A stretch of 48,589 bases of DNA from Dehalococcoidia bacterium (GTDB taxonomy: Bacteria; Chloroflexota; Dehalococcoidia; Lucifugimonadales; UBA3495), in the NCBI GenBank assembly GCA_022821365.1, contig JAJEDS010000190.1:1-48589 (forward strand), given 5' to 3'. Position numbers and translations under genes: made by a program. Shown here one piece after another: positions 3,643-45,662 of the stretch; positions within the stretch are counted from its first letter, which is position 1; every line of letters starts with the position of its first letter. The notes below the pieces were generated by a model. The model did no database searches. It was not told where the DNA came from and saw nothing but the letters and a program-made list of their open reading frames with translations.

Positions 3643-3692
3643 GCATTAAAGAGTCCTTCCCCCTTGACGGAGGAAGGTCAGGATGGGGGTGA
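3643..3692 (-). repeat. Intergenic hairpin repeat, family B (reverse orientation)
   Basis: The reverse complement reads acccccatcctgaCCTTCCtccgtcaaggGGGAAGGactctttaatg. This matches the family pattern: C-rich arm, GTCAA loop, G-rich arm, GGACT-tail. Confidence 0.55.
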
Positions 3693-7835: not shown

Positions 7836-8453
7836 ATGGCGACTACACCGGTAAAGGCTCCCCCAGCAACCCGGGAAAGGCGCAAGTTCACGGTGGACGA
7901 GTATTTCCGCATGGTGGAGGCGGGTGTTCTGAAACCCAAAGAGCGGGTGGAGTTGATTGAAGGGGAGATACTGATTATGCCACCGATGGGACCGCCTAAT
8001 TTTGGGGGCGTAACTCGCCACGCGCGAGTATTTATCAGCCGAGCGGCCAATCGGTTCAGCGTTCTAGTCCAAGGACCAGTGCATTTGGATGAGCACACGG
8101 CTCCGGAGCCAGACGTAATATTGGCGAAGTTCCGCGATGACGACTATTCCTTTGCCCACGCCACCCCCGAGGACATTCTTCTGATAGTCGAGGTGGCCGA
8201 CTCTTCGTTGGCCTACGATCGCGAAGTTAAGGCCCACATCTACGGGCGTTTCAATATACCTGAGACGTGGGTGCTGAATCTGCCCGGGAATTGTCTGGAG
8301 CGGTTTACGGAACCGGGGCCAGAGGGTTACGGCCAGCACACCGTCCTGCGGCGGGGGGACAAGGTCAGGCCGGTAGCATTACCTGACCTGGAGTTGGTGG
8401 TGGATGAATTGTTGCTGCCGGTGGCGCCAACAGTGGAGGAAGAGCAAGGTTAA
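7836..8453 (+). CDS. Uma2 (DUF820) family putative endonuclease
   Basis: ATG 7836. Motifs seen: FTVDEYFRM, ELIEGEI, PEPDV, LIVEVADSS...D...K...Y...IPETWVLNL (a PD-(D/E)xK-like Uma2 pattern). Confidence 0.75.
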   Translation: MATTPVKAPPATRERRKFTVDEYFRMVEAGVLKPKERVELIEGEILIMPPMGPPNFGGVTRHARVFISRAANRFSVLVQGPVHLDEHTAPEPDVILAKFRDDDYSFAHATPEDILLIVEVADSSLAYDREVKAHIYGRFNIPETWVLNLPGNCLERFTEPGPEGYGQHTVLRRGDKVRPVALPDLELVVDELLLPVAPTVEEEQG

Positions 8454-8464
8454 TCCACTAATTT

Positions 8465-8935
8465 TCACGAATTGTCACTAATGGGTAGTTCGGGTTTTTT
8501 GGTGCCGTTAAGCAGGCCATTGGCTTCGCGGTAGGCCTCGGTGAGGGCGGAGAGTAGGTCATCCGTTGCTTCCTCGAGATAGATAAGGGCAGGACGGTTG
8601 GTTTTCCATAAATCCCGCATCGAGTACCTATTCAGGGCAGGAATCGCGCTTGGTGCAAGTTGCCTAAGCTCATGGGCATTCAGGTAGAGCCAAGGACCCT
8701 TGGTTCTGCTCTGACCGGAGTTAACCTTCGCCAATGGTCTTTTTGTCTTGTATGAGCGGATAAGAAGATTGACATATTTTCGGCCATTAAGCTCAAGGAT
8801 CACTAAATTCTCCTGGTCAAGAAGTTCGCACCAACTGATAATACGTTCCATATCGTCCTTAAACTTGACCGGAATGTTTTCAAATTCCTTATGCAAGGAA
8901 ATCGTATCCGATTGAGCACTTGTCTTCATTGGCAC
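8465..8935 (-). CDS. Hypothetical protein (A+T-richer orphan ORF)
   Basis: 156-aa ORF starting at GTG 8935, or at ATG 8929. AGGAGGA lies upstream. I recognise no family motif. Composition is visibly more A+T-rich than the neighbours. Confidence 0.5.
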   Translation of the reverse strand: MPMKTSAQSDTISLHKEFENIPVKFKDDMERIISWCELLDQENLVILELNGRKYVNLLIRSYKTKRPLAKVNSGQSRTKGPWLYLNAHELRQLAPSAIPALNRYSMRDLWKTNRPALIYLEEATDDLLSALTEAYREANGLLNGTKKPELPISDNS

Positions 8936-9079
8936 TTGCTATTCCAGTTCCTCCTATTTCGGTAAGTCATTCAATGCTTACTCTGGAATCATAATTGGGT
9001 TCGGCGGGCGCGAACCGCTGAGGTTCCAGGGTCCGGTGATTACGATAGAAGGCAGCCCGTTTACAGCCAGCAGGTCCGT

Positions 9080-9125
9080 CACCCCCATCCTGGCCTCCCC
9101 CCGTCAATGGGGAAGGGACTTTATC
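9080..9125 (+). repeat. Intergenic hairpin repeat, family B
   Basis: cacccccatcctggcctCCCCccgtcaatGGGGaagggactttatc. Its tail overlaps the aroC stop codon (9121-9123). Confidence 0.5.
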
Positions 9126-10311
9126 GGTAAACCTTCCTCGGCCCCACCGTCTTCATATACCCTTCGAAGTTGCGGCGGGTTTCGGGGATGGAGTCGCCGC
9201 CGAACTTTTCCATGAAGGCGTCGGCCAGCACCAGGGCCACCATGGCCTCTCCGATTACCCCGGCCGGCGGGGCTTGGCAGACGTCGGAGCGTTCGAAGTG
9301 GGCCTGCACCGGTTCGCCGGTGTCCAGGTCCACCGAGGGCAGGGGGTTGTGCAGGGTGGCGATGGGCTTGATGCCGAAGCGGGCCACCAGGGGCATGCCG
9401 TCGGTCATGCCGCCCTCGGTGCCGCCGGCCCGGTTGGTCTTGCGCTGCCAGGGGTTGTCGGGGTCGGTTACCGGCTCGATAACGTCGTGGACTTCGGAAC
9501 CCCGCTTGTTGACCACCTCCCAACCGGGGCCGATGGAGACGTCCTTGACGGCGTTGATGGACATGAGGGCCTGGGCGATGCGGCCGTCAATCTTCTTGTC
9601 CCACTGGATGTGGGAACCCAGGCCGATGGGCACGTTCTCGGCAATGACCTCGACAGTGCCGCCCACCGTGTCGCCGGCGTCCCGGGCGGCGTCGACCTCG
9701 GCAATCATCTTCTGGGTGGCCTCGGGGTCGGCGCAACGCACCGGCGACTCCTCCACCGCGTCCCAGTCAATGGCGTCGTGGGTGTCGGGAGTGTCCGCCC
9801 ACACGCCGCCGATGGATATGACGTGGCTGTGGAGCCTGATGCCGAACTCCTCCAGCAGGCGCATGGCGATGGCGCCGGCGCCCACCCGCGCGGCAGTCTC
9901 CCGGGCGCTGGCCCGCTCCAGGACGTTACGCACGTCGGAGAAGCCGTACTTCATAGTCCCGGGCAGGTCGGCGTGGCCGGGTCTGATGCGGGTGACACGG
10001 CGATTGCGGCCCTCCTGGGAAGGATTCTCCACGTACTCCACGGCCATGGCCTCGGTCCAGTTAGCCCAGTCCTTGTTCTCAATGGTCATGCCGATGGGGC
10101 TTCCCAGGGTGAGGCCGTGGCGAACGCCGGTCATTATGTGGGCCCAGTCCTGTTCGATAAGTTGGCGGCCGCCCCGTCCGTAGCCGCGCTGCCGCCGGGC
10201 CAGTTGGGTGCCGATGTACTCCTCGCTGATGGGCAGGGCCGCGGGGACGCCCTCCATGATTATCACCAGGCCCTGGCCGTGGGACTCGCCTGCCGTAAAC
10301 CACCGGATCAT
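9121..10311 (-). CDS. aroC: Chorismate synthase
   Basis: The N-terminus FTAGESHG and the motifs RRQRGYGRGGRQ, RPGHAD and RSDVC are the canonical AroC pattern. 396 aa. Confidence 0.95.
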   Translation of the reverse strand: MIRWFTAGESHGQGLVIIMEGVPAALPISEEYIGTQLARRQRGYGRGGRQLIEQDWAHIMTGVRHGLTLGSPIGMTIENKDWANWTEAMAVEYVENPSQEGRNRRVTRIRPGHADLPGTMKYGFSDVRNVLERASARETAARVGAGAIAMRLLEEFGIRLHSHVISIGGVWADTPDTHDAIDWDAVEESPVRCADPEATQKMIAEVDAARDAGDTVGGTVEVIAENVPIGLGSHIQWDKKIDGRIAQALMSINAVKDVSIGPGWEVVNKRGSEVHDVIEPVTDPDNPWQRKTNRAGGTEGGMTDGMPLVARFGIKPIATLHNPLPSVDLDTGEPVQAHFERSDVCQAPPAGVIGEAMVALVLADAFMEKFGGDSIPETRRNFEGYMKTVGPRKVYR

Positions 10312-10336
10312 AATTCGCTACCTCTTCTATCGATTG

Positions 10337-10419
10337 ATCCACGAATAGGCACGAATATTCACTAATGGTCCCTTAATTGCAAAGAGCGCATTAGTGTTTA
10401 TTCGTGTCTATTCGTGGAC
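10337..10419. repeat. ATTCGTG-repeat element, family A, inverted-repeat form
   Basis: Left arm atCCACGAATaggCACGAATattCACTAATg (10337-10367). Right arm cATTAGTGtttATTCGTGtctATTCGTGGac (10389-10419). 27 of 31 positions are complementary and the loop is 21 nt. It fills the aroE-aroC intercistronic gap. Confidence 0.8.
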
Positions 10420-10453
10420 AAAAAGGGAATGAACAAAGCGGGATGTTTGCCGC

Positions 10454-11308
10454 TCAGATGCGGGACTGCATGGCCCGGATTGCCGCTTCCAGCATTACCG
10501 GTACCGGCGCGGGCCGCTCCAGCCACATCTCAAAGGAGGCCGCCCCCTGGTAGACCAGCATTTCAATGCCGCCCAGGGTTTTTGCGCCGGCCTGGGCCGC
10601 TTCCCGCAGCAGACGGGTTTCGATGGGATTATACACCAGGTCATTGACCAGGGCCGTTGGTGGGATGGCGTCTCCGGGCAAGGGCGTTTCATCCTCACCA
10701 GGGCCGTGGGTCATGCCGATGGTGGTGCAATTGACGATGAGTTCGGCGGTGGCGGCGGATTCAATTAACTCGGGACCAGGAAGGGGTATGGGACTGGAGG
10801 TTATGCCCCGGTTCCGGGCCAGTTGGGCCAGGCTTTCCGCCCGTTCCGGGGTGCGGTTTGCGATGGTGAGGACGCCTACCCCTTCGCGAGCCAGGGCCAG
10901 AACCACGCCCCGGGCCGCGCCTCCGGCCCCCAGGACGAGGGTACGGCGTCCCCGGGGTTCAAAGCCCGCGCTTTCCCGCAAGGCCCGAAGGAAGCCGTAG
11001 CCGTCGGTGTTGTGGCCGGTGAGCCGCCCCTGCCGGTTGACGATGGTATTGACGGCGCCGGCCTCGGTGGCCCAGTCGTCAATTTCGTCCAGGAAGGGCA
11101 TCACCGCCAGCTTGTGCGGGACGGTTACGTTGATGCCCAGGACGGCGGGCTGGCGCAGGCCGTTGACGAACTCCTCAACCTCGTCCGGCGCCACCTGGTA
11201 CGCCATGTACCTGGCATCTACACCGCAGGCATCCAGCGCCGCCTGCTGAAACACAGGCGACATGGAATGCCCTATGGGGTAACCAATTATGCCAAGGGCG
11301 GTGTTCAT
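10454..11308 (-). CDS. aroE: Shikimate dehydrogenase
   Basis: N-terminus GIIGYPIGHSMSPVFQQAAL, plus NVTVPHK, NTDGYGF and the Rossmann motif LGAGGAARG. 284 aa. Confidence 0.93.
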   Translation of the reverse strand: MNTALGIIGYPIGHSMSPVFQQAALDACGVDARYMAYQVAPDEVEEFVNGLRQPAVLGINVTVPHKLAVMPFLDEIDDWATEAGAVNTIVNRQGRLTGHNTDGYGFLRALRESAGFEPRGRRTLVLGAGGAARGVVLALAREGVGVLTIANRTPERAESLAQLARNRGITSSPIPLPGPELIESAATAELIVNCTTIGMTHGPGEDETPLPGDAIPPTALVNDLVYNPIETRLLREAAQAGAKTLGGIEMLVYQGAASFEMWLERPAPVPVMLEAAIRAMQSRI

Positions 11309-11318
11309 TTGAAGGGAG

Positions 11319-11362
11319 CCCTCACCCCCGGCCCCTCTCCCTCAGGGAGAGGGGAGTATTCT
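11319..11362 (+). repeat. Intergenic hairpin repeat, family B variant
   Basis: ccctcacccccggCCCCTCTCCCtcaGGGAGAGGGGagtattctc forms a perfect 10-bp stem. Confidence 0.6.
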
Positions 11363-11429
11363 CATAAGTGAACATTCGTGACTATTCGTGGATAAATCCC
11401 TTCGCGGCCCTTCGTGTTCCTTCGTGGAT
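11363..11429 (+). repeat. ATTCGTG-repeat element, family A, long direct form
   Basis: CATAAGTGaacATTCGTGactATTCGTGGATAAATCCCTTCGCGGcccTTCGTGttccTTCGTGGAT. It is nearly colinear with 42343-42409. Confidence 0.8.
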
Positions 11430-11432
11430 TGA

Positions 11433-14126
11433 TTAACCGCCGAGTTGGGCCAGAATATCGCCCAGGCGTTGCTGCTGTTCCTGGAGGTTGCGCAAGCGGT
11501 CCTCCTCGGTTTCCACCACGTCGGGGCGGGCCTTGGCGCGGAAGTTGGGGTTGTTGACCAGCTTTTCCTTGCGCTCCAGTTCCCGTTCGGTGCTGGCCAG
11601 TTCCTCCCGCAGCCTGTCCTGCTCGGCGGCCAGATCCACCACCCCCTCCAGGGGCAGTCGCACCACCAGGGGATTTACCACCAGGGTAACGCCCCTGGTC
11701 TGCTCCGAATCCTCCGGAGCGCCGGAGGTAATGCTCAAGGGTTCCACCCGGGACAGGGTGCGGATTACCTCCGCCTCTTCTTCCATGGCTCGCCGCAGGC
11801 CGTTGGCCTCCACCTGGGCCTCCAGCCGCTGGTTGGCCGGAATACGAAGCTGGGCGCGGGTGTTGCGCACGGCGCGGATGGTCTGCATCACCAGGGAGAT
11901 TTCGTCCTCGGCCTGCCGGTCGTGGCGCGGAGACTCGGCCTGAGGGTAGTCGGCGACCATTATGGACGGGTCCAACTCTCCCTCAACAGGCAGGCAGGAG
12001 GTCAGGTTCCGCCAGATTTCCTCGGTAATGAAGGGCATGAAGGGATGCAGCAGGCGCAGGGTACGCTCCAGCACGTGGGCCAGCGCCGGACGGGGCGAGG
12101 GCCCTTCGCCGGAACGCATGCGCACCTTGGCCATTTCGATGTACCAGTCGCAGAAGTCGTCCCAGATGAAGTCGTACAGGCTCTGCTGTGCCTCGCCCAG
12201 TTCGAAGGCAGCCAGGGAGGCGTTGACGTCGGCAGTAACCCGGTCCAGCAGGCTGACGATCCAGCGGTCCTCCCGGTGCTCCAGGTTGGGCAGATCCCGC
12301 CAGCCGGCCAGGTCGTCCTGCCCCTCAAGGGAAGTAATGACGAAACGGGCGGCGTTCCATACCTTGTTGGCGAAGTTGCGGGCGGCCTCCAGCTTGCCCT
12401 CGGTGATGCGCAGGTCGTTGCCCGGGGCGGTGCCGGTGGACAGGGCAAAGCGGAGGGCGTCGGTGCCGTAGCGGTCGATAAGGTCCAGGGGATCCATAGT
12501 ATTGCCCCGGGTCTTGCTCATTTTTTCGCCGTTGGCGTCGCGGATCAGGCCGTGCAAGTACACCGTGCGGAAGGGAATATCCCCGGTGTTCTCGATGCCC
12601 ATCATAATCATGCGGGCCACCCAGAAAAAGAGGATGTCGTAGCCCGTTTCCATGACGGCGGTGGGGTAGAAGTAGCTGAAATCATCGGTGTCGTCGGGCC
12701 AGCCCAGGGTTGAATGAGGCCACAGGCCGGAACTGAACCAGGTATCCAGCACGTCCTCGTCCTGGCGCAGGCCCTCGGAATTGCAGGTGGGACAGGCGTT
12801 GGGATCTTCGGTAGAGACCACAATCTCGTCGCACTCGTCACAGTACCAAACGGGGATGCGGTGGCCCCACCATAGCTGGCGGCTGATGCACCAGTCCCGA
12901 ATGTTCTCCAACCAGTTGAGATAGACCCGGCCGAAACGGTCGGGGACTATGGTAATGTCACCCTTGGCCACGGCGGCGTGGGCGCGGCCGGCGATGGTGT
13001 CGGGCTCCTGGTGGCTGCCCACCTTGAGGAACCATTGCAGGCTGATGAGGGGTTCCACCACCGCGTCGCAGCGCTGGCAGTGGCCCACCGAATGGCGGTA
13101 GTCCTCCACCTTCTCCAGCAGGCCCAGGCTGTCCAGTTCCTCGGCCACGGCCTGGCGGGTGTCGAACCGCTCCCGCCCCTCATACTTGCCGGCCTGGTCG
13201 GTCATGTTGCCGTCAAAGCCAATGACGTTGATGATTTCCAGGCCGTGGCGTTCGCCAATCTCGAAGTCGGTAACGTCGTGCCCCGGGGTTACCTTCAGGG
13301 CGCCGGTGCCGAACTCCATCTCGATGGCCTCGTCGCCCACGATGGGGATGGGCCGGTCCATGATGGGCAACATGGCATCCTTGCCCACAAAGGCGGCATA
13401 GCGCGGGTCCTCTGGATGCACCGCCACGCCCGTGTCGCCCAGCATGGACTCGGGGCGGGTGGTGGCCACGGTTATGTGGCCGGTGCCGTCGGCCAGGGGG
13501 TAGCGGATGTAATAGAGCTTGCCGTCCTGCTCCTGGTATTCCACCTCCAGGTCGGAGAGGGCCGTGGCGCAGCGGGGACACCAGTTGATGATGCGCTCGT
13601 GCCTGTAAATGAGGCCCTTGTTGTACAGGTTGACAAAGGTGGTGCGGACGGCCCTGGCCGGGCCTGGGTCCAGGGTAAAGCGCAGGCGGGTCCAGTCGCA
13701 GGAGGTGCCCAGTCGCTTGTGCTGCTCGTCGATGGTGTTGCCGTAGCGGGCCACCCACTCCCAGATGCGCTCCTGGAACTTTTCGCGGCCCAGGTCGTGG
13801 CGATTGGTCCCCTCCTCGGCCAGCAGCCGCTCCACCACCCACTGGGTGGCAATGCCGGCGTGGTCCTTGCCCGGAAGCCACAGGGTATCGTCGCCCAGCA
13901 TACGGTGCCAGCGGGTCAGGGCATCCTCGATGGTGGCGGTAAGGGCGTGGCCCAGGTGCAGCTCACCGGTAACGTTGGGCGGCGGCATGATGATGACGAA
14001 GGGTTGGCGGCCTGGGCGTATTTGTGGCGTGAAGTAACCGGCATCCTGCCAGTCCTGGTAAATGCGCTGTTCCACGGATGCGGGATCATAGGCGCGGGGG
14101 ATCTCGGCGGGGGCGCTGGAGGTCAT
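11433..14126 (-). CDS. valS: Valine--tRNA ligase
   Basis: 897 aa. It has the class I HIGH motif (PNVTGELHLGHA), KMSKT (EKMSKTRGN) and a C-terminal coiled coil, with a ValRS-type N-terminus (YDPASVEQRIYQDW). Confidence 0.95.
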   Translation of the reverse strand: MTSSAPAEIPRAYDPASVEQRIYQDWQDAGYFTPQIRPGRQPFVIIMPPPNVTGELHLGHALTATIEDALTRWHRMLGDDTLWLPGKDHAGIATQWVVERLLAEEGTNRHDLGREKFQERIWEWVARYGNTIDEQHKRLGTSCDWTRLRFTLDPGPARAVRTTFVNLYNKGLIYRHERIINWCPRCATALSDLEVEYQEQDGKLYYIRYPLADGTGHITVATTRPESMLGDTGVAVHPEDPRYAAFVGKDAMLPIMDRPIPIVGDEAIEMEFGTGALKVTPGHDVTDFEIGERHGLEIINVIGFDGNMTDQAGKYEGRERFDTRQAVAEELDSLGLLEKVEDYRHSVGHCQRCDAVVEPLISLQWFLKVGSHQEPDTIAGRAHAAVAKGDITIVPDRFGRVYLNWLENIRDWCISRQLWWGHRIPVWYCDECDEIVVSTEDPNACPTCNSEGLRQDEDVLDTWFSSGLWPHSTLGWPDDTDDFSYFYPTAVMETGYDILFFWVARMIMMGIENTGDIPFRTVYLHGLIRDANGEKMSKTRGNTMDPLDLIDRYGTDALRFALSTGTAPGNDLRITEGKLEAARNFANKVWNAARFVITSLEGQDDLAGWRDLPNLEHREDRWIVSLLDRVTADVNASLAAFELGEAQQSLYDFIWDDFCDWYIEMAKVRMRSGEGPSPRPALAHVLERTLRLLHPFMPFITEEIWRNLTSCLPVEGELDPSIMVADYPQAESPRHDRQAEDEISLVMQTIRAVRNTRAQLRIPANQRLEAQVEANGLRRAMEEEAEVIRTLSRVEPLSITSGAPEDSEQTRGVTLVVNPLVVRLPLEGVVDLAAEQDRLREELASTERELERKEKLVNNPNFRAKARPDVVETEEDRLRNLQEQQQRLGDILAQLGG

Positions 14127-22743: not shown

Positions 22744-22774
22744 CATTTGTGAATATTCGTGTCCATTCGTGGAT
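22744..22774 (+). repeat. ATTCGTG-repeat element, family A, short form
   Basis: CACATTTGTGaatATTCGTGtccATTCGTGGAT, about 20 nt upstream of the ATG at 22796. Confidence 0.75.
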
Positions 22775-22795
22775 AGACAAACAGGAGACAAACCC

Positions 22796-23134
22796 ATGAC
22801 CCTGACCCAAATCAGAAACCAGATTCATCAACTCCAGCGCAAATTCGCTAAGGAACTGGCCGTCTACCGCCTCCGCCAACTGGCCGAGCAAATCGCCGAG
22901 GACTGGACCGTAGCCACCGCCGAAAAGGAACCACTTCCCAATCCGGTCCAGGTGGTCCAGCGCGTCGCCCGGGAGGGCCATGTCCTGAGGACCTACATGA
23001 ACCTGAACCAGTACGTCCAGCGGTGCATCGACGAGGGAAGATGTCTGGAGGCCCCGCAAATCGTCCTGGCCCTGCTGCCCTGGGCCTGGAACCACCGCTA
23101 CGACGACATCCTCTACGGCGAAATCCCCGCCTGA
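22796..23134 (+). CDS. Hypothetical protein (112 aa)
   Basis: ATG 22796 follows AGGAG. The translation looks plausibly coding but I recognise no family. Confidence 0.5.
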   Translation: MTLTQIRNQIHQLQRKFAKELAVYRLRQLAEQIAEDWTVATAEKEPLPNPVQVVQRVAREGHVLRTYMNLNQYVQRCIDEGRCLEAPQIVLALLPWAWNHRYDDILYGEIPA

Positions 23135-42276: not shown

Positions 42277-42312
42277 CTGCCGGTCCTGTACCTTAGACCC
42301 AGGCGAAAGTTA

Positions 42313-42338
42313 AGGGGCGCACCGTGCGGTGCGCCCCT
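42313..42338. terminator. Palindromic hairpin after NHL copy 2
   Basis: AGGGGCGCACCG/CGGTGCGCCCCT, a 12-bp palindrome arm. It shares the AGGGGCG...CGCCCCT ends with the hairpin after NHL copy 1. Confidence 0.5.
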
Positions 42339-42342
42339 CATC

Positions 42343-42409
42343 CATTAGTGCTCATTCGTGCCCATTCGTGGATAAATCCCCTTCGTGGTTCTTCGTGTCC
42401 TTCGTGGAT
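42343..42409 (+). repeat. ATTCGTG-repeat element, family A, long direct form
   Basis: CATTAGTGctcATTCGTGcccATTCGTGGATAAATCCCCTTCGTGGttcTTCGTGtccTTCGTGGAT. It is nearly colinear with 11363-11429. Confidence 0.8.
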
Positions 42410-42763: not shown

Positions 42764-42863
42764 TGACTGCGCTCCTGGCTTTACTTACATGGATAGGCAG
42801 GATGAGCAGAATCTTTCCTTCTCAATAATCCTGTATATCCTGTCCATCCTTGTTTGAATTTTT

Positions 42864-43355: not shown

Positions 43356-43428
43356 ATACCCTCCAGGGAAGAATAATACCATAGGAGGATTATGCGATGA
43401 AGTTGACCCACGTAGGTACCCGATTCCC

Positions 43429-43477
43429 CACGAATAATGAGCAGGCCATTCGTGAGTATTCGTGCCGATTCGTGGAT
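43429..43477 (+). repeat. ATTCGTG-repeat element, family A
   Basis: CACGAATaatgagcaggCCATTCGTGagtATTCGTGccgATTCGTGGAT: one inverted heptamer followed by three phased direct heptamers. Confidence 0.75.
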
Positions 43478-44388: not shown

Positions 44389-44415
44389 AGGTTGGTTGCT
44401 CCAGTCAGTTAATCC

Positions 44416-44496
44416 CCCAAGAATACACACGAACCTTCACTAATGATCAATTGGCTCGAATCGGCCATTCGTGGAAATTCGTGTGTATTCGTGGAT
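44416..44496. repeat. ATTCGTG-repeat element, family A, inverted-repeat form filling the sucC-sucD gap
   Basis: Left arm cccaaGAATacaCACGAACcttCACTAATg. Right arm CCATTCGTGgaaATTCGTGtgtATTCGTGGAT. The arms are imperfectly complementary, with a 13-nt identical core (gaatacacacgaa). Confidence 0.75.
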
Positions 44497-44507: not shown

Positions 44508-45662
44508 TTAAGCTGCCCGTCGTACCGCCTCGGCGGCCTCGGTCAGGGTGTCGGCAAAGGTTACGTTGAGGGGTGAGGCGGCCAGGATTTCCTTGCCCTC
44601 GTCCACGTTGGTGCCCAGCATGCGGACGATCAGGGGCAGGTTGGAGTTCATGCGTTCAAAGGCCAGGACAATGCCGCGGGCCGCGATGTCGCAGCGCAGA
44701 ATGCCGCCAAAGACGTTGATCAAGACCCGGTCCACCTTTGGATCGGAGAGGATGATGCTGACCGCACTGGCTACCTTTTCGTCGTCGGCGCCGCCTCCCA
44801 CATCCAGGAAGTTGGCCGGGGCTGCGCCGGCGGCGTTGGTTACGTCCAGGGTAGCCATGGCCAGGCCTGCCCCGTTGACCAGGCAGCCGACGCTGCCCTC
44901 CAGGTTCACGTAGGCGATCTCCATGTCGGAAGCCCGGGCCTCCAGCGCGTCCTCCTGGGAACGGTCCCGCAGTTCCCGCAGGTCGCCGTGGCGGAACATG
45001 GAATCGTCTTCCACGTCCAGCTTGGCGTCCAGGGCCACCACCCGGTCGTCGCCCGTTACGATCAGGGGGTTGATTTCCACCAGTGAGCAGTCGTTTTCGG
45101 TGAAGATGCGATACAGGGCGTTAAGCGCCTGTACGGCGGGTCGTGCGGGGCCTGCTTCCAGACCCAGGCGGGATACCACCCGCCGCGCCTGGTATGGCAT
45201 CAGGCCCAGGACGGGCTCAATGGGTTCGGTGTGGATGTTCTCGGGGTTGGTGGCGGCTACTTCTTCAATGTCCATGCCGCCGGCGGCGCTGGCAATCATT
45301 ACCGGACCGCGAAACCCCCGGTCAATGGTCAGGGCCACGTAAAGTTCCTGTTTGATGTCGGCCAGTTCCTCCACCAGCACCGAGTTTATGGGGACGCCCT
45401 GGGCGTCGGTCTGGCGGGTTACCAGGTTGCGGCCGATGAACCCCCGGGCCACCTCTTCCGCCTCTTCGGGGGAACGGACCACCTTGATGCCGCCGCCCTG
45501 GCCGCGCCCACCGGCATGGACCTGGGCCTTCACCACCGCCTGTCCGCCCATCTCCCTGGTGGCCTGCGCTGCCTCTTCAGGGGTGTTGGCCACGATGCCC
45601 CGGGGCACTTCGATGCCGTAGCGAGCGAAAATCTCCTTGGCCTGGTACTCGTGAAGTTTCAT
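44508..45662 (-). CDS. sucC: ADP-forming succinate--CoA ligase subunit beta
   Basis: MKLHEYQAKEIFARYGIEVPRG is a canonical SucC N-terminus (ATP-grasp). 384 aa. Confidence 0.95.
   Translation of the reverse strand: MKLHEYQAKEIFARYGIEVPRGIVANTPEEAAQATREMGGQAVVKAQVHAGGRGQGGGIKVVRSPEEAEEVARGFIGRNLVTRQTDAQGVPINSVLVEELADIKQELYVALTIDRGFRGPVMIASAAGGMDIEEVAATNPENIHTEPIEPVLGLMPYQARRVVSRLGLEAGPARPAVQALNALYRIFTENDCSLVEINPLIVTGDDRVVALDAKLDVEDDSMFRHGDLRELRDRSQEDALEARASDMEIAYVNLEGSVGCLVNGAGLAMATLDVTNAAGAAPANFLDVGGGADDEKVASAVSIILSDPKVDRVLINVFGGILRCDIAARGIVLAFERMNSNLPLIVRMLGTNVDEGKEILAASPLNVTFADTLTEAAEAVRRAA

Follow-up and report, generated by a model that had tools for sequence, protein, structure and literature searches.

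The window analysed here, a 48,589-nt stretch of DNA from a Dehalococcoidia bacterium, is one contig (C115) of a 3.24-Mb assembly (G000) that comprises 379 contigs, is 83% complete and has a G+C content of 60.5%. Between its genes, which include aroE and aroC, valS, and sucC and sucD, lie seven loci with rows of three ATTCGTG-type heptamers at 10 bp and a GGATAAA end. The pattern ATTCGTG-N3-ATTCGTG, with up to two mismatches, has 22 matches in the window, against 0.30 expected from shuffled sequence, and none of 100 shuffles reaches 22. The original prediction had listed six copies, all of which are present, but the list is short by one, the minus-strand array at 8450-8482. It had also treated every locus as a single array, and three of them (10334-10420, 43405-43477 and 44410-44496) turn out to be inverted array pairs. 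The two 67-nt long copies, 11363-11429 and 42343-42409, are less alike than the "near-identical" of the original prediction, with 85% identity (58 of 68 aligned columns). Each of these long forms is an A-type array (ATTAGTG-N3-ATTCGTG-N3-ATTCGTGGATAAA) followed in tandem, in the same orientation, by a B-type array (three CTTCGTG units with a GGAT end). The coordinates of all arrays in the window are collected in Table 1.

Table 1. Heptamer arrays of the window, with their arms, strands and neighbouring codons
Feature	Position	Strand	Remarks
Solo A-type array	8450-8482	-	TTAATC-CACTAAT-ttt-CACGAAT-tgt-CACTAAT
Left arm of divergent pair, aroE-aroC spacer	10334-10366	-	GGATCAA end toward aroC start codon at 10311
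Loop (23 nt) between aroE-aroC arms	10367-10389		Sequence unique in the genome
Right arm of aroE-aroC pair	10390-10420	+	GGAC end toward aroE stop codon at 10454
A-type array, first long form	11364-11396	+	ATAAGTG-aac-ATTCGTG-act-ATTCGTGGATAAA; kept at the orthologous site in at least seven species
B-type array in tandem, first long form	11400-11429	+	CTTCGCG-gcc-CTTCGTG-ttc-CTTCGTGGAT; end 3 nt from valS stop codon at 11433
Solo A-type array	22745-22777	+	End 24 nt before ATG (22796) of a small multi-copy gene (MTLTQIRNQIHQLQR...)
A-type array, second long form	42344-42376	+	
B-type array in tandem, second long form	42381-42409	+	Heptamers 10 and 9 nt apart, like those of B-type arms around GxxExxY genes; abuts stop codon (42413) of a minus-strand gene
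Degenerate left arm, downstream of sucD	43405-43435	-	Only intact heptamer CACGAAT at 43429-43435; orthologous arm better preserved in G012 and G001
Intact arm, downstream of sucD	43448-43477	+	sucD stop codon (43501) 26 nt from the end of the last heptamer
Left arm of sucC-sucD pair, partly decayed	44410-44444	-	Toward sucD start codon; pair fills the spacer
Right arm of sucC-sucD pair	44467-44496	+	Toward sucC stop codon at 44508

Phased ATTCGTG arrays are a real feature of the genome as a whole. A genome-wide pattern search of G000 returns 152 triple arrays, well over a hundred, together with 60 doubles; exact terminal doublets number 63 for the A-type and 77 for the B-type. Successive TTCGTG words start 10 nt (178 cases) or 9 nt (61 cases) apart, and spacings of 7, 8, 11 and 12 nt never occur. 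The conserved block is ~36 nt long, cCATTaGTGaacATTCGTGyCcATTCGTGGATaAA, with weakly conserved spacers, and no conserved motif is found in the array flanks. Both the intergenic enrichment and the spread beyond the window that had been proposed are borne out, as 133 of the 156 arrays with at least three heptamers (85%) lie outside genes (binomial p = 6e-73, on our own crude gene calls covering 81.5% of the genome). The arrays also give rise to spurious ORFs, as had been suspected from odd peptides such as LIRAHSW, and they break assemblies.

The placement of the arrays relative to each other and to genes is highly regular. All 38 of the 38 array pairs are divergent, with their GGAT ends pointing outward, and none is convergent; the lengths of the loops between the arms form two clusters, 1-25 nt (mode 21-23) and 59-113 nt. 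An array always has its outward end close to a gene. Where this end faces a stop codon, the gap is 2-20 nt, and TTTATC often follows the stop immediately; where it faces a start codon, the gap is 17-41 nt and contains the ribosome-binding site. The inner side is 1-938 nt from the next gene. Solo arrays face start codons in 40 cases and stop codons in 24, and neighbouring arrays 0.3-3 kb apart mostly bracket single genes, pointing inward. The earlier suggestion of sites for an RNA-binding protein is unlikely on this evidence, since start-proximal and stop-proximal arrays run in opposite senses relative to the flanking genes.

Blind clustering of the ORFs that adjoin arrays gave one small family common to Prevotella, Dehalococcoidia and Bacteroidetes loci, and GxxExxY was recovered in this way in the Prevotella and Bacteroidetes loci. 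The GxxExxY protein (PF13366 PDDEXK_3/TIGR04256) has ~125 residues, a PD-(D/E)XK nuclease fold and the invariant residues G27, E30, Y33, D70, E80 and K82. A sequence search for a solved structure of a relative returned none. The AlphaFold model (pLDDT 88.6) has Cas4 SSO0001 as its nearest fold, a weak match (E = 3e-4), followed by further weak matches to lambda exonuclease, a splicing endonuclease, a Hjc-type resolvase and the catalytic domain of I-Bth0305I. The family is very large, with 3,315 and 7,675 cluster representatives matched in just two homologue searches; a 2012 survey of the PD-(D/E)XK superfamily lists its function as unknown and describes multiple transfers between lineages.

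In G000, a profile search finds a single TIGR04256 match, on contig C258, and this gene is enclosed by a divergent array pair, the only one whose interior is long (477 nt). In order, the locus consists of TTTATCCACGAAT-atc-CACAAAT-aat-CACTAAT, the gene, ATTAGTG-aac-ATTCGTG-ttt-ATTAGTGGATAAA and then the start codon of der. The innermost unit, ATTAGTG, is common to the gene-flanking and the dispersed arms, and no other gene is enclosed by any divergent pair of G000. The G000 gene itself carries a premature TAA where its relatives have a Glu codon. The arrays of the window are most likely copies, without the gene, of the repeat arms found on either side of this small nuclease gene in many bacterial phyla. 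Literature searches by sequence and by keyword returned neither a published link between GxxExxY and flanking repeats nor a description of such a heptamer-array element.

The 17 species of the genus, G000 included, amount to a natural experiment: the state of the cassette ranges from intact through a single mutation and decay to deletion or absence, and the array populations become smaller to match. Throughout the genus the cassette keeps to a single locus, between a gene ending in ...HNRKHAQKAVLEF and der. It is found there in ten species: the gene is intact with A-type arms in G003, G014, G006 and G011 and with B-type arms in G010 and G007, has a single premature stop in G000, and is decayed in G004, G013 and G008. 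Four more species (G009, G001, G012 and G015) have lost the gene and keep arm remnants, nothing is left in G002 and G016, and a run of 100 N, either an assembly gap caused by the repeat or a withheld stretch, stands at the cassette site on contig C70 of G005. Within the genus, the exact array motif is present in 15 of the 16 other species, in 0-94 copies, and a search of 24 other genera in the family and order did not find it. A-type and B-type arrays together number 35-134 (median 59) in species with an intact gene versus 0-63 (median 11) where the gene is degraded, deleted or absent. Array count follows gene integrity with a Spearman coefficient of 0.78 and a Mann-Whitney p of 0.003, and sister contrasts on a four-protein tree fall in the predicted direction in five of five cases. 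These figures are indicative only, and the p-values overstate the support, because the species are related. G000 has the most arrays, yet its own gene is broken, G009 has 63 arrays and no gene, and G005 has 83 arrays with the gap at its cassette locus. The numbers in G000 and G009 suggest that arrays outlive the gene, or that another copy is unassembled.

Two close sisters, G010 (L214, B-type arms) and G011 (L216, A-type arms), carry different GxxExxY subtypes at the same locus upstream of der, which indicates that the cassette has been swapped with its flanks undisturbed. The numbers of A-type and B-type arrays do not match up with A-type and B-type genes in the genus, so A and C at the first base are perhaps not told apart.

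Heptamer word and protein lineage vary together. A second GxxExxY lineage, 49% identical to the first, is flanked by rows of CATGGATAGACAGGAT... and ...ATCCTGTCCATCCATG, so that the word is TTCGTG for lineage 1 and ATCCTGT for lineage 2. The second-lineage sequence TCCTGTCCATCC occurs in 31-57 copies in the four species that carry a second-lineage gene and in at most 15 copies in 11 of the 13 others, the exceptions being the fragmented G000 and G005 assemblies. The same pairing of heptamer and lineage is seen in six protein clusters outside the genus. CACGAAG/CTTCGTG arms flank three lineage-1 homologues, most of which sit within restriction-modification operons, and ACAGGAT/ATCCTGT arms flank three lineage-2 homologues, labelled Thiotrichales, Nitrospirae and Deltaproteobacteria. 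A third lineage has CGCAGAG/CTCTGCG arms; counts of the CTCTGCG word show no correlation with its gene, with a search pattern that was possibly too strict.

Several further observations concern these sister families and the cassettes. In G000, TCCTGTCCATCC is present in 44 copies, yet no GxxExxY gene of the matching lineage is found in the 83%-complete assembly. At 42788-42855, the window itself has two divergent arms (CATGGATAGGCAGGATGAGCAGAAT ... ATCCTGTatATCCTGTccATCCTTG) that belong to a second heptamer-array family and have 9-nt phasing. In metagenome contigs (L227-L238, L244-L245), GxxExxY cassettes repeatedly interrupt restriction-modification or SNF2-helicase operons, where they lie either between hsdR and hsdM or between methylase and helicase; the upstream stop codon overlaps the first arm (TGATCCACGAAG).

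Beyond the genus, the 20-base motif ATTCGTG-N3-ATTCGTGGATAA was found in more than 114 stretches, where about one chance match is expected in 596 Gb. The labels among the matches listed are Chloroflexota, Planctomycetota, Verrucomicrobiota, Bacteroidota, Desulfobacterota, Sumerlaeota, Armatimonadota and others; in Paramagnetospirillum, the spacer between pccB and pccA holds a pair, and the cassette also occurs in public MAGs labelled Dehalococcoidia. Five such foreign genomes have 5-44 copies each, in the same divergent architecture and with unconserved loops. A 2.9-kb divergent pair in a planctomycete (L168) was considered as a larger autonomous element and rejected, as it encloses ordinary secretion-type genes. 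A Planctomycetota genome (G041, L169-L176) carries intergenic modules in which arrays of two words are nested in one ~250-nt unit: ATTCGTG arms on the outside enclose inverted rows of CACAGAG/CTCTGTG heptamers.

We consider it likely that the arrays, whether solo arms, tandem arms or inverted pairs, are gene-less members of a GxxExxY heptamer-array family, whose full-length form is the gene between two inverted arrays with the GGAT(AAA) ends outward. The original prediction had offered an array of DNA-binding sites or a REP/MITE-like element as alternatives. The evidence suggests that each is partly right and that the two belong together: the heptamers are conserved as binding sites would be, and the spread in copy number and the presence of the same arms around GxxExxY fit a dispersed repeat family.

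The arrays might instead be classical MITEs moved by an ordinary transposase (e.g., of the IS1380 type or another DDE enzyme), with GxxExxY as a frequent passenger between the arms. Indeed, the arms are inverted repeats that end short non-coding units, and their presence differs between species. The difference is evident in the sucC-sucD spacer, which holds an ~85-nt pair with alignable loops in G000, G005, G011, G003 and G008 and is empty (~25 nt) in the six species G001, G012, G014, G009, G004 and G002. The closest kin of G000, namely G001 and G012, have the empty spacer, which points to repeated clean loss or allelic exchange, and no convincing target-site duplication emerges from the comparison. 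An IS1380-like DDE gene is present on contig C187 of G000, but it was rejected as a partner since no TTCGTG arrays flank it, and the pairs of this genome enclose GxxExxY and no other gene. The pair interiors are unconserved: no similarity was found between any two of 34 pair loops, and with no loop sequence in common the pair is not copied as a unit in the way of a classical MITE. Array abundance, moreover, tracks the integrity of GxxExxY and the heptamer tracks its lineage. We therefore regard an origin as classical MITEs as improbable, given the unrelated loops and the C187 transposase without arrays. The pairs were also considered as deletion remnants of full cassettes, a reading that was rejected because the loops share only trivial word matches with the cassette interior.

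The arrays could also serve a DNA-binding protein of the host (a response regulator, an MraZ-like or a nucleoid protein) as operators or architectural sites, kept at gene boundaries to control or insulate transcription and unrelated to GxxExxY. Direct repeats at one helical turn resemble the sites of OmpR/PhoB, CtsR or MraZ. The 40 solo arrays that face start codons, most of them 17-41 nt away, would suit such sites, as would the slower change of the heptamers at fixed loci. At orthologous loci in up to seven species the heptamers diverge by 14% versus 40% for the spacers, a contrast that carries an ascertainment bias toward conserved heptamers because the loci were picked with arrays still recognisable. 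Heptamers are likewise conserved, and N3 spacers not, across the copies in the genome. The constraint acts on the heptamer words, which fits sequence-specific recognition of DNA by a protein, and the slow change could alternatively reflect a host function unrelated to mobility. Nevertheless, about as many arrays lie toward stop as toward start codons, no promoter-like motif is conserved around them, and a search for an MraZ gene found none, so that an MraZ operator was rejected. A promoter reading was dropped as well, since there are no sigma-70-like hexamers at usable spacing and the flanks are unconserved. The range of 0-94 copies among congeners, with sites missing at orthologous spacers, is unlike a conserved regulon, and the identical motif recurs in many phyla. 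On balance, host operators seem as improbable to us as MITEs do.

A third possibility is that the elements act at the RNA level: the pairs would be intercistronic hairpins that direct the processing or termination of transcripts or stabilise mRNA, and the heptamers would be incidental. E. coli REP elements that adjoin stop codons have such roles in processing, stabilisation and termination. If transcribed, the aroE-aroC and sucC-sucD pairs are predicted to fold strongly (-44.5 kcal/mol, z = -10.2, and -37.3 kcal/mol, z = -5.1, respectively). However, no compensatory variation is seen between the arms: arm-to-arm identity of the spacers within pairs is 0.39 against 0.40 for shuffled partners (p = 0.6). 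About 40% of the arrays are solo or tandem and have no predicted structure, including the tandem long forms (z = 0.6 for the 11363-11429 copy), the strict 9/10-nt phasing is superfluous for a hairpin, and an Rfam search returned no family at the gathering threshold. Conserved heptamers, variable spacers and arms without co-variation argue for recognition by a protein rather than for a hairpin, and we rate an RNA-level function as still less probable than host operators. A UUCG-type mini-hairpin around each heptamer, considered by eye, was dropped because the GGAT tail is unchanged when the preceding spacer changes.

Least probable is that the arrays titrate or recruit DnaA. Three facts suggest this reading: the outer unit, when read on the opposite strand (TTATCCACG), agrees with the DnaA box TTATCCACA in 8 of 9 positions, 118 of the 175 TTATCCAC words in G000 have G next and lie in arrays, and canonical TTATCCACA boxes are what the genus has in the spacer that follows dnaA. 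The reading is contradicted by inner heptamers that leave box positions 3-5 free and so are not DnaA boxes, by an origin-like spacer that has no heptamer arrays, and by sister families (ATCCTGT, CTCTGCG) with unrelated ends. In a search for 9-mers fitting TTWTNCACA, only the outer unit came close, at those 8 of 9 positions, and canonical boxes lie elsewhere. Of four species inspected (L159-L162), G014, G009 and G002 have a cluster of TTATCCACA and TGTGGATAA boxes downstream of dnaA, and G003 does not; the cluster likely marks the origin region; dnaA was not found in the G000 assembly.

Among known systems, REP/BIME and REPIN-RAYT elements come closest to the GxxExxY arrays. They too are short extragenic repeats in tens to hundreds of copies, frequently paired as inverted doublets and frequently only a few bases away from a stop codon. 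A further likeness to REPIN-RAYT systems is that a single gene, inherited vertically and usually in one copy, has these repeats on both sides, and that the repeat population shrinks after the gene is lost; GxxExxY here takes the place of RAYT. The partner differs, however, being a ~125-aa protein of PD-(D/E)XK fold rather than an HUH tyrosine transposase (TnpA_REP, Y1 HUH), the arms are direct heptamers at 9-10 bp rather than GTAG/CGTC-tagged palindromes, and the identical motif spans many phyla. The array units show no self-complementarity, being direct repeats, so there is no imperfect-palindrome unit. RAYT (PF01797) has no match in G000 and only weak partial matches in five congeners, which do not track array counts, and the REP/RAYT motifs listed in PMC3733652 include no such heptamer motif. 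By analogy, the arrays would work like REP/REPIN-RAYT systems but stand outside that family, with neither an HUH gene nor a palindromic unit.

Other mobile elements resemble the arrays in part. MITEs such as the Correia elements of Neisseria are small, non-coding, located between genes and bounded by inverted ends, and co-transcribed Correia copies form long hairpins; the arrays differ in their unconserved interior, in that no DDE transposase partner was found, and in the many copies that are single arms. The ends of Mu and Tn7 each carry two to four direct copies of a recognition word, and the two ends are mutually inverted, whereas here the units are 7 bp at 10-bp phasing and the element is ~0.5 kb with a single tiny gene. 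Among transposition proteins, the nuclease fold recalls, to our knowledge, only TnsA. Finally, PD-(D/E)XK homing endonucleases (I-Bth0305I, I-Ssp6803I) are likewise encoded by small selfish nuclease genes of the same superfold in host operons, but they are not known to leave hundreds of gene-less flank copies at unrelated sites.

The best reading of the arrays, drawn by analogy, is as recognition sites of the GxxExxY nuclease in a REPIN/RAYT-like system, in which the protein would bind and mobilise them. Each heptamer of an arm might be bound by one nuclease protomer, with several protomers lined up head-to-tail along the same face; they might then bring the two arms together and cut at their outer ends. 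Acting in trans, the nuclease would spread or renew arms in the way that RAYT transposases treat REP/REPIN, and the copies that survive would mostly be those just after stop codons and just upstream of ribosome-binding sites. Pairs transcribed within operons would have to form long hairpins, probably as a side effect and not as their purpose; the arrays put such strong hairpins inside operons such as sucCD and aroE-aroC. More tentatively, we suggest that GxxExxY proteins may be the dedicated enzymes of an undescribed, phylum-spanning repeat class with one 7-bp word per lineage, and that in this genus the rows may be selected at gene boundaries. If true, the rows would be more than junk, for example nuclease-guarded operon punctuation or a vertically inherited "genomic symbiont" like REPIN-RAYT. 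The link of PF13366/TIGR04256 to a defined phased DNA word gives a large family a testable role, and it points to a second, mechanistically different example of the long-term partnership between repeat and gene known from REPIN-RAYT. New from the comparison of the genus are the decay of arrays after gene loss, the different rates of heptamers and spacers, and the rules of divergent pairing and of placement at stop and start codons.

The heptamer arrays share their intergenic sites with other repeats, and several repeat families compete for the same short spacers. Hairpins of the CCCCTCTCCCTCAGGGAGAGGGG-CCGGGGGTGAGGG and CCTTCCCCCTTGACGG(A/G)GGAAGGTCAGGATGGGGGTGA families lie at 11325-11355, 3655-3692 and 9079-9116 of the window and in orthologous spacers of G006, G007, G013 and G015, and in some species they replace the heptamer pair in the sucC-sucD spacer. 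GC-rich hairpin repeats of the GTAGGGGCGGCCCTTGTGGCCGCCCTG type adjoin or replace heptamer arrays, in the window at 42310-42340 and also in the spacers downstream of sucD in G003, G014, G009, G008 and G013. The small multi-copy gene at 22796-23134 (~131 aa, MMTLSEIKREIRALQRKYHRE...), whose window copy has no Pfam match, recurs on contigs C2, C101, C181, C184, C203, C304, C351 and C352 of G000; its copies sit at contig ends, which indicates that this family breaks the assembly. It is nearly always preceded by an A-type array together with the composite GGGCCAAAATGGAACCAAATGGAAC-N-ATTATCAAAAAATTCCC, itself two 10-bp-phased AAATGGAAC units.
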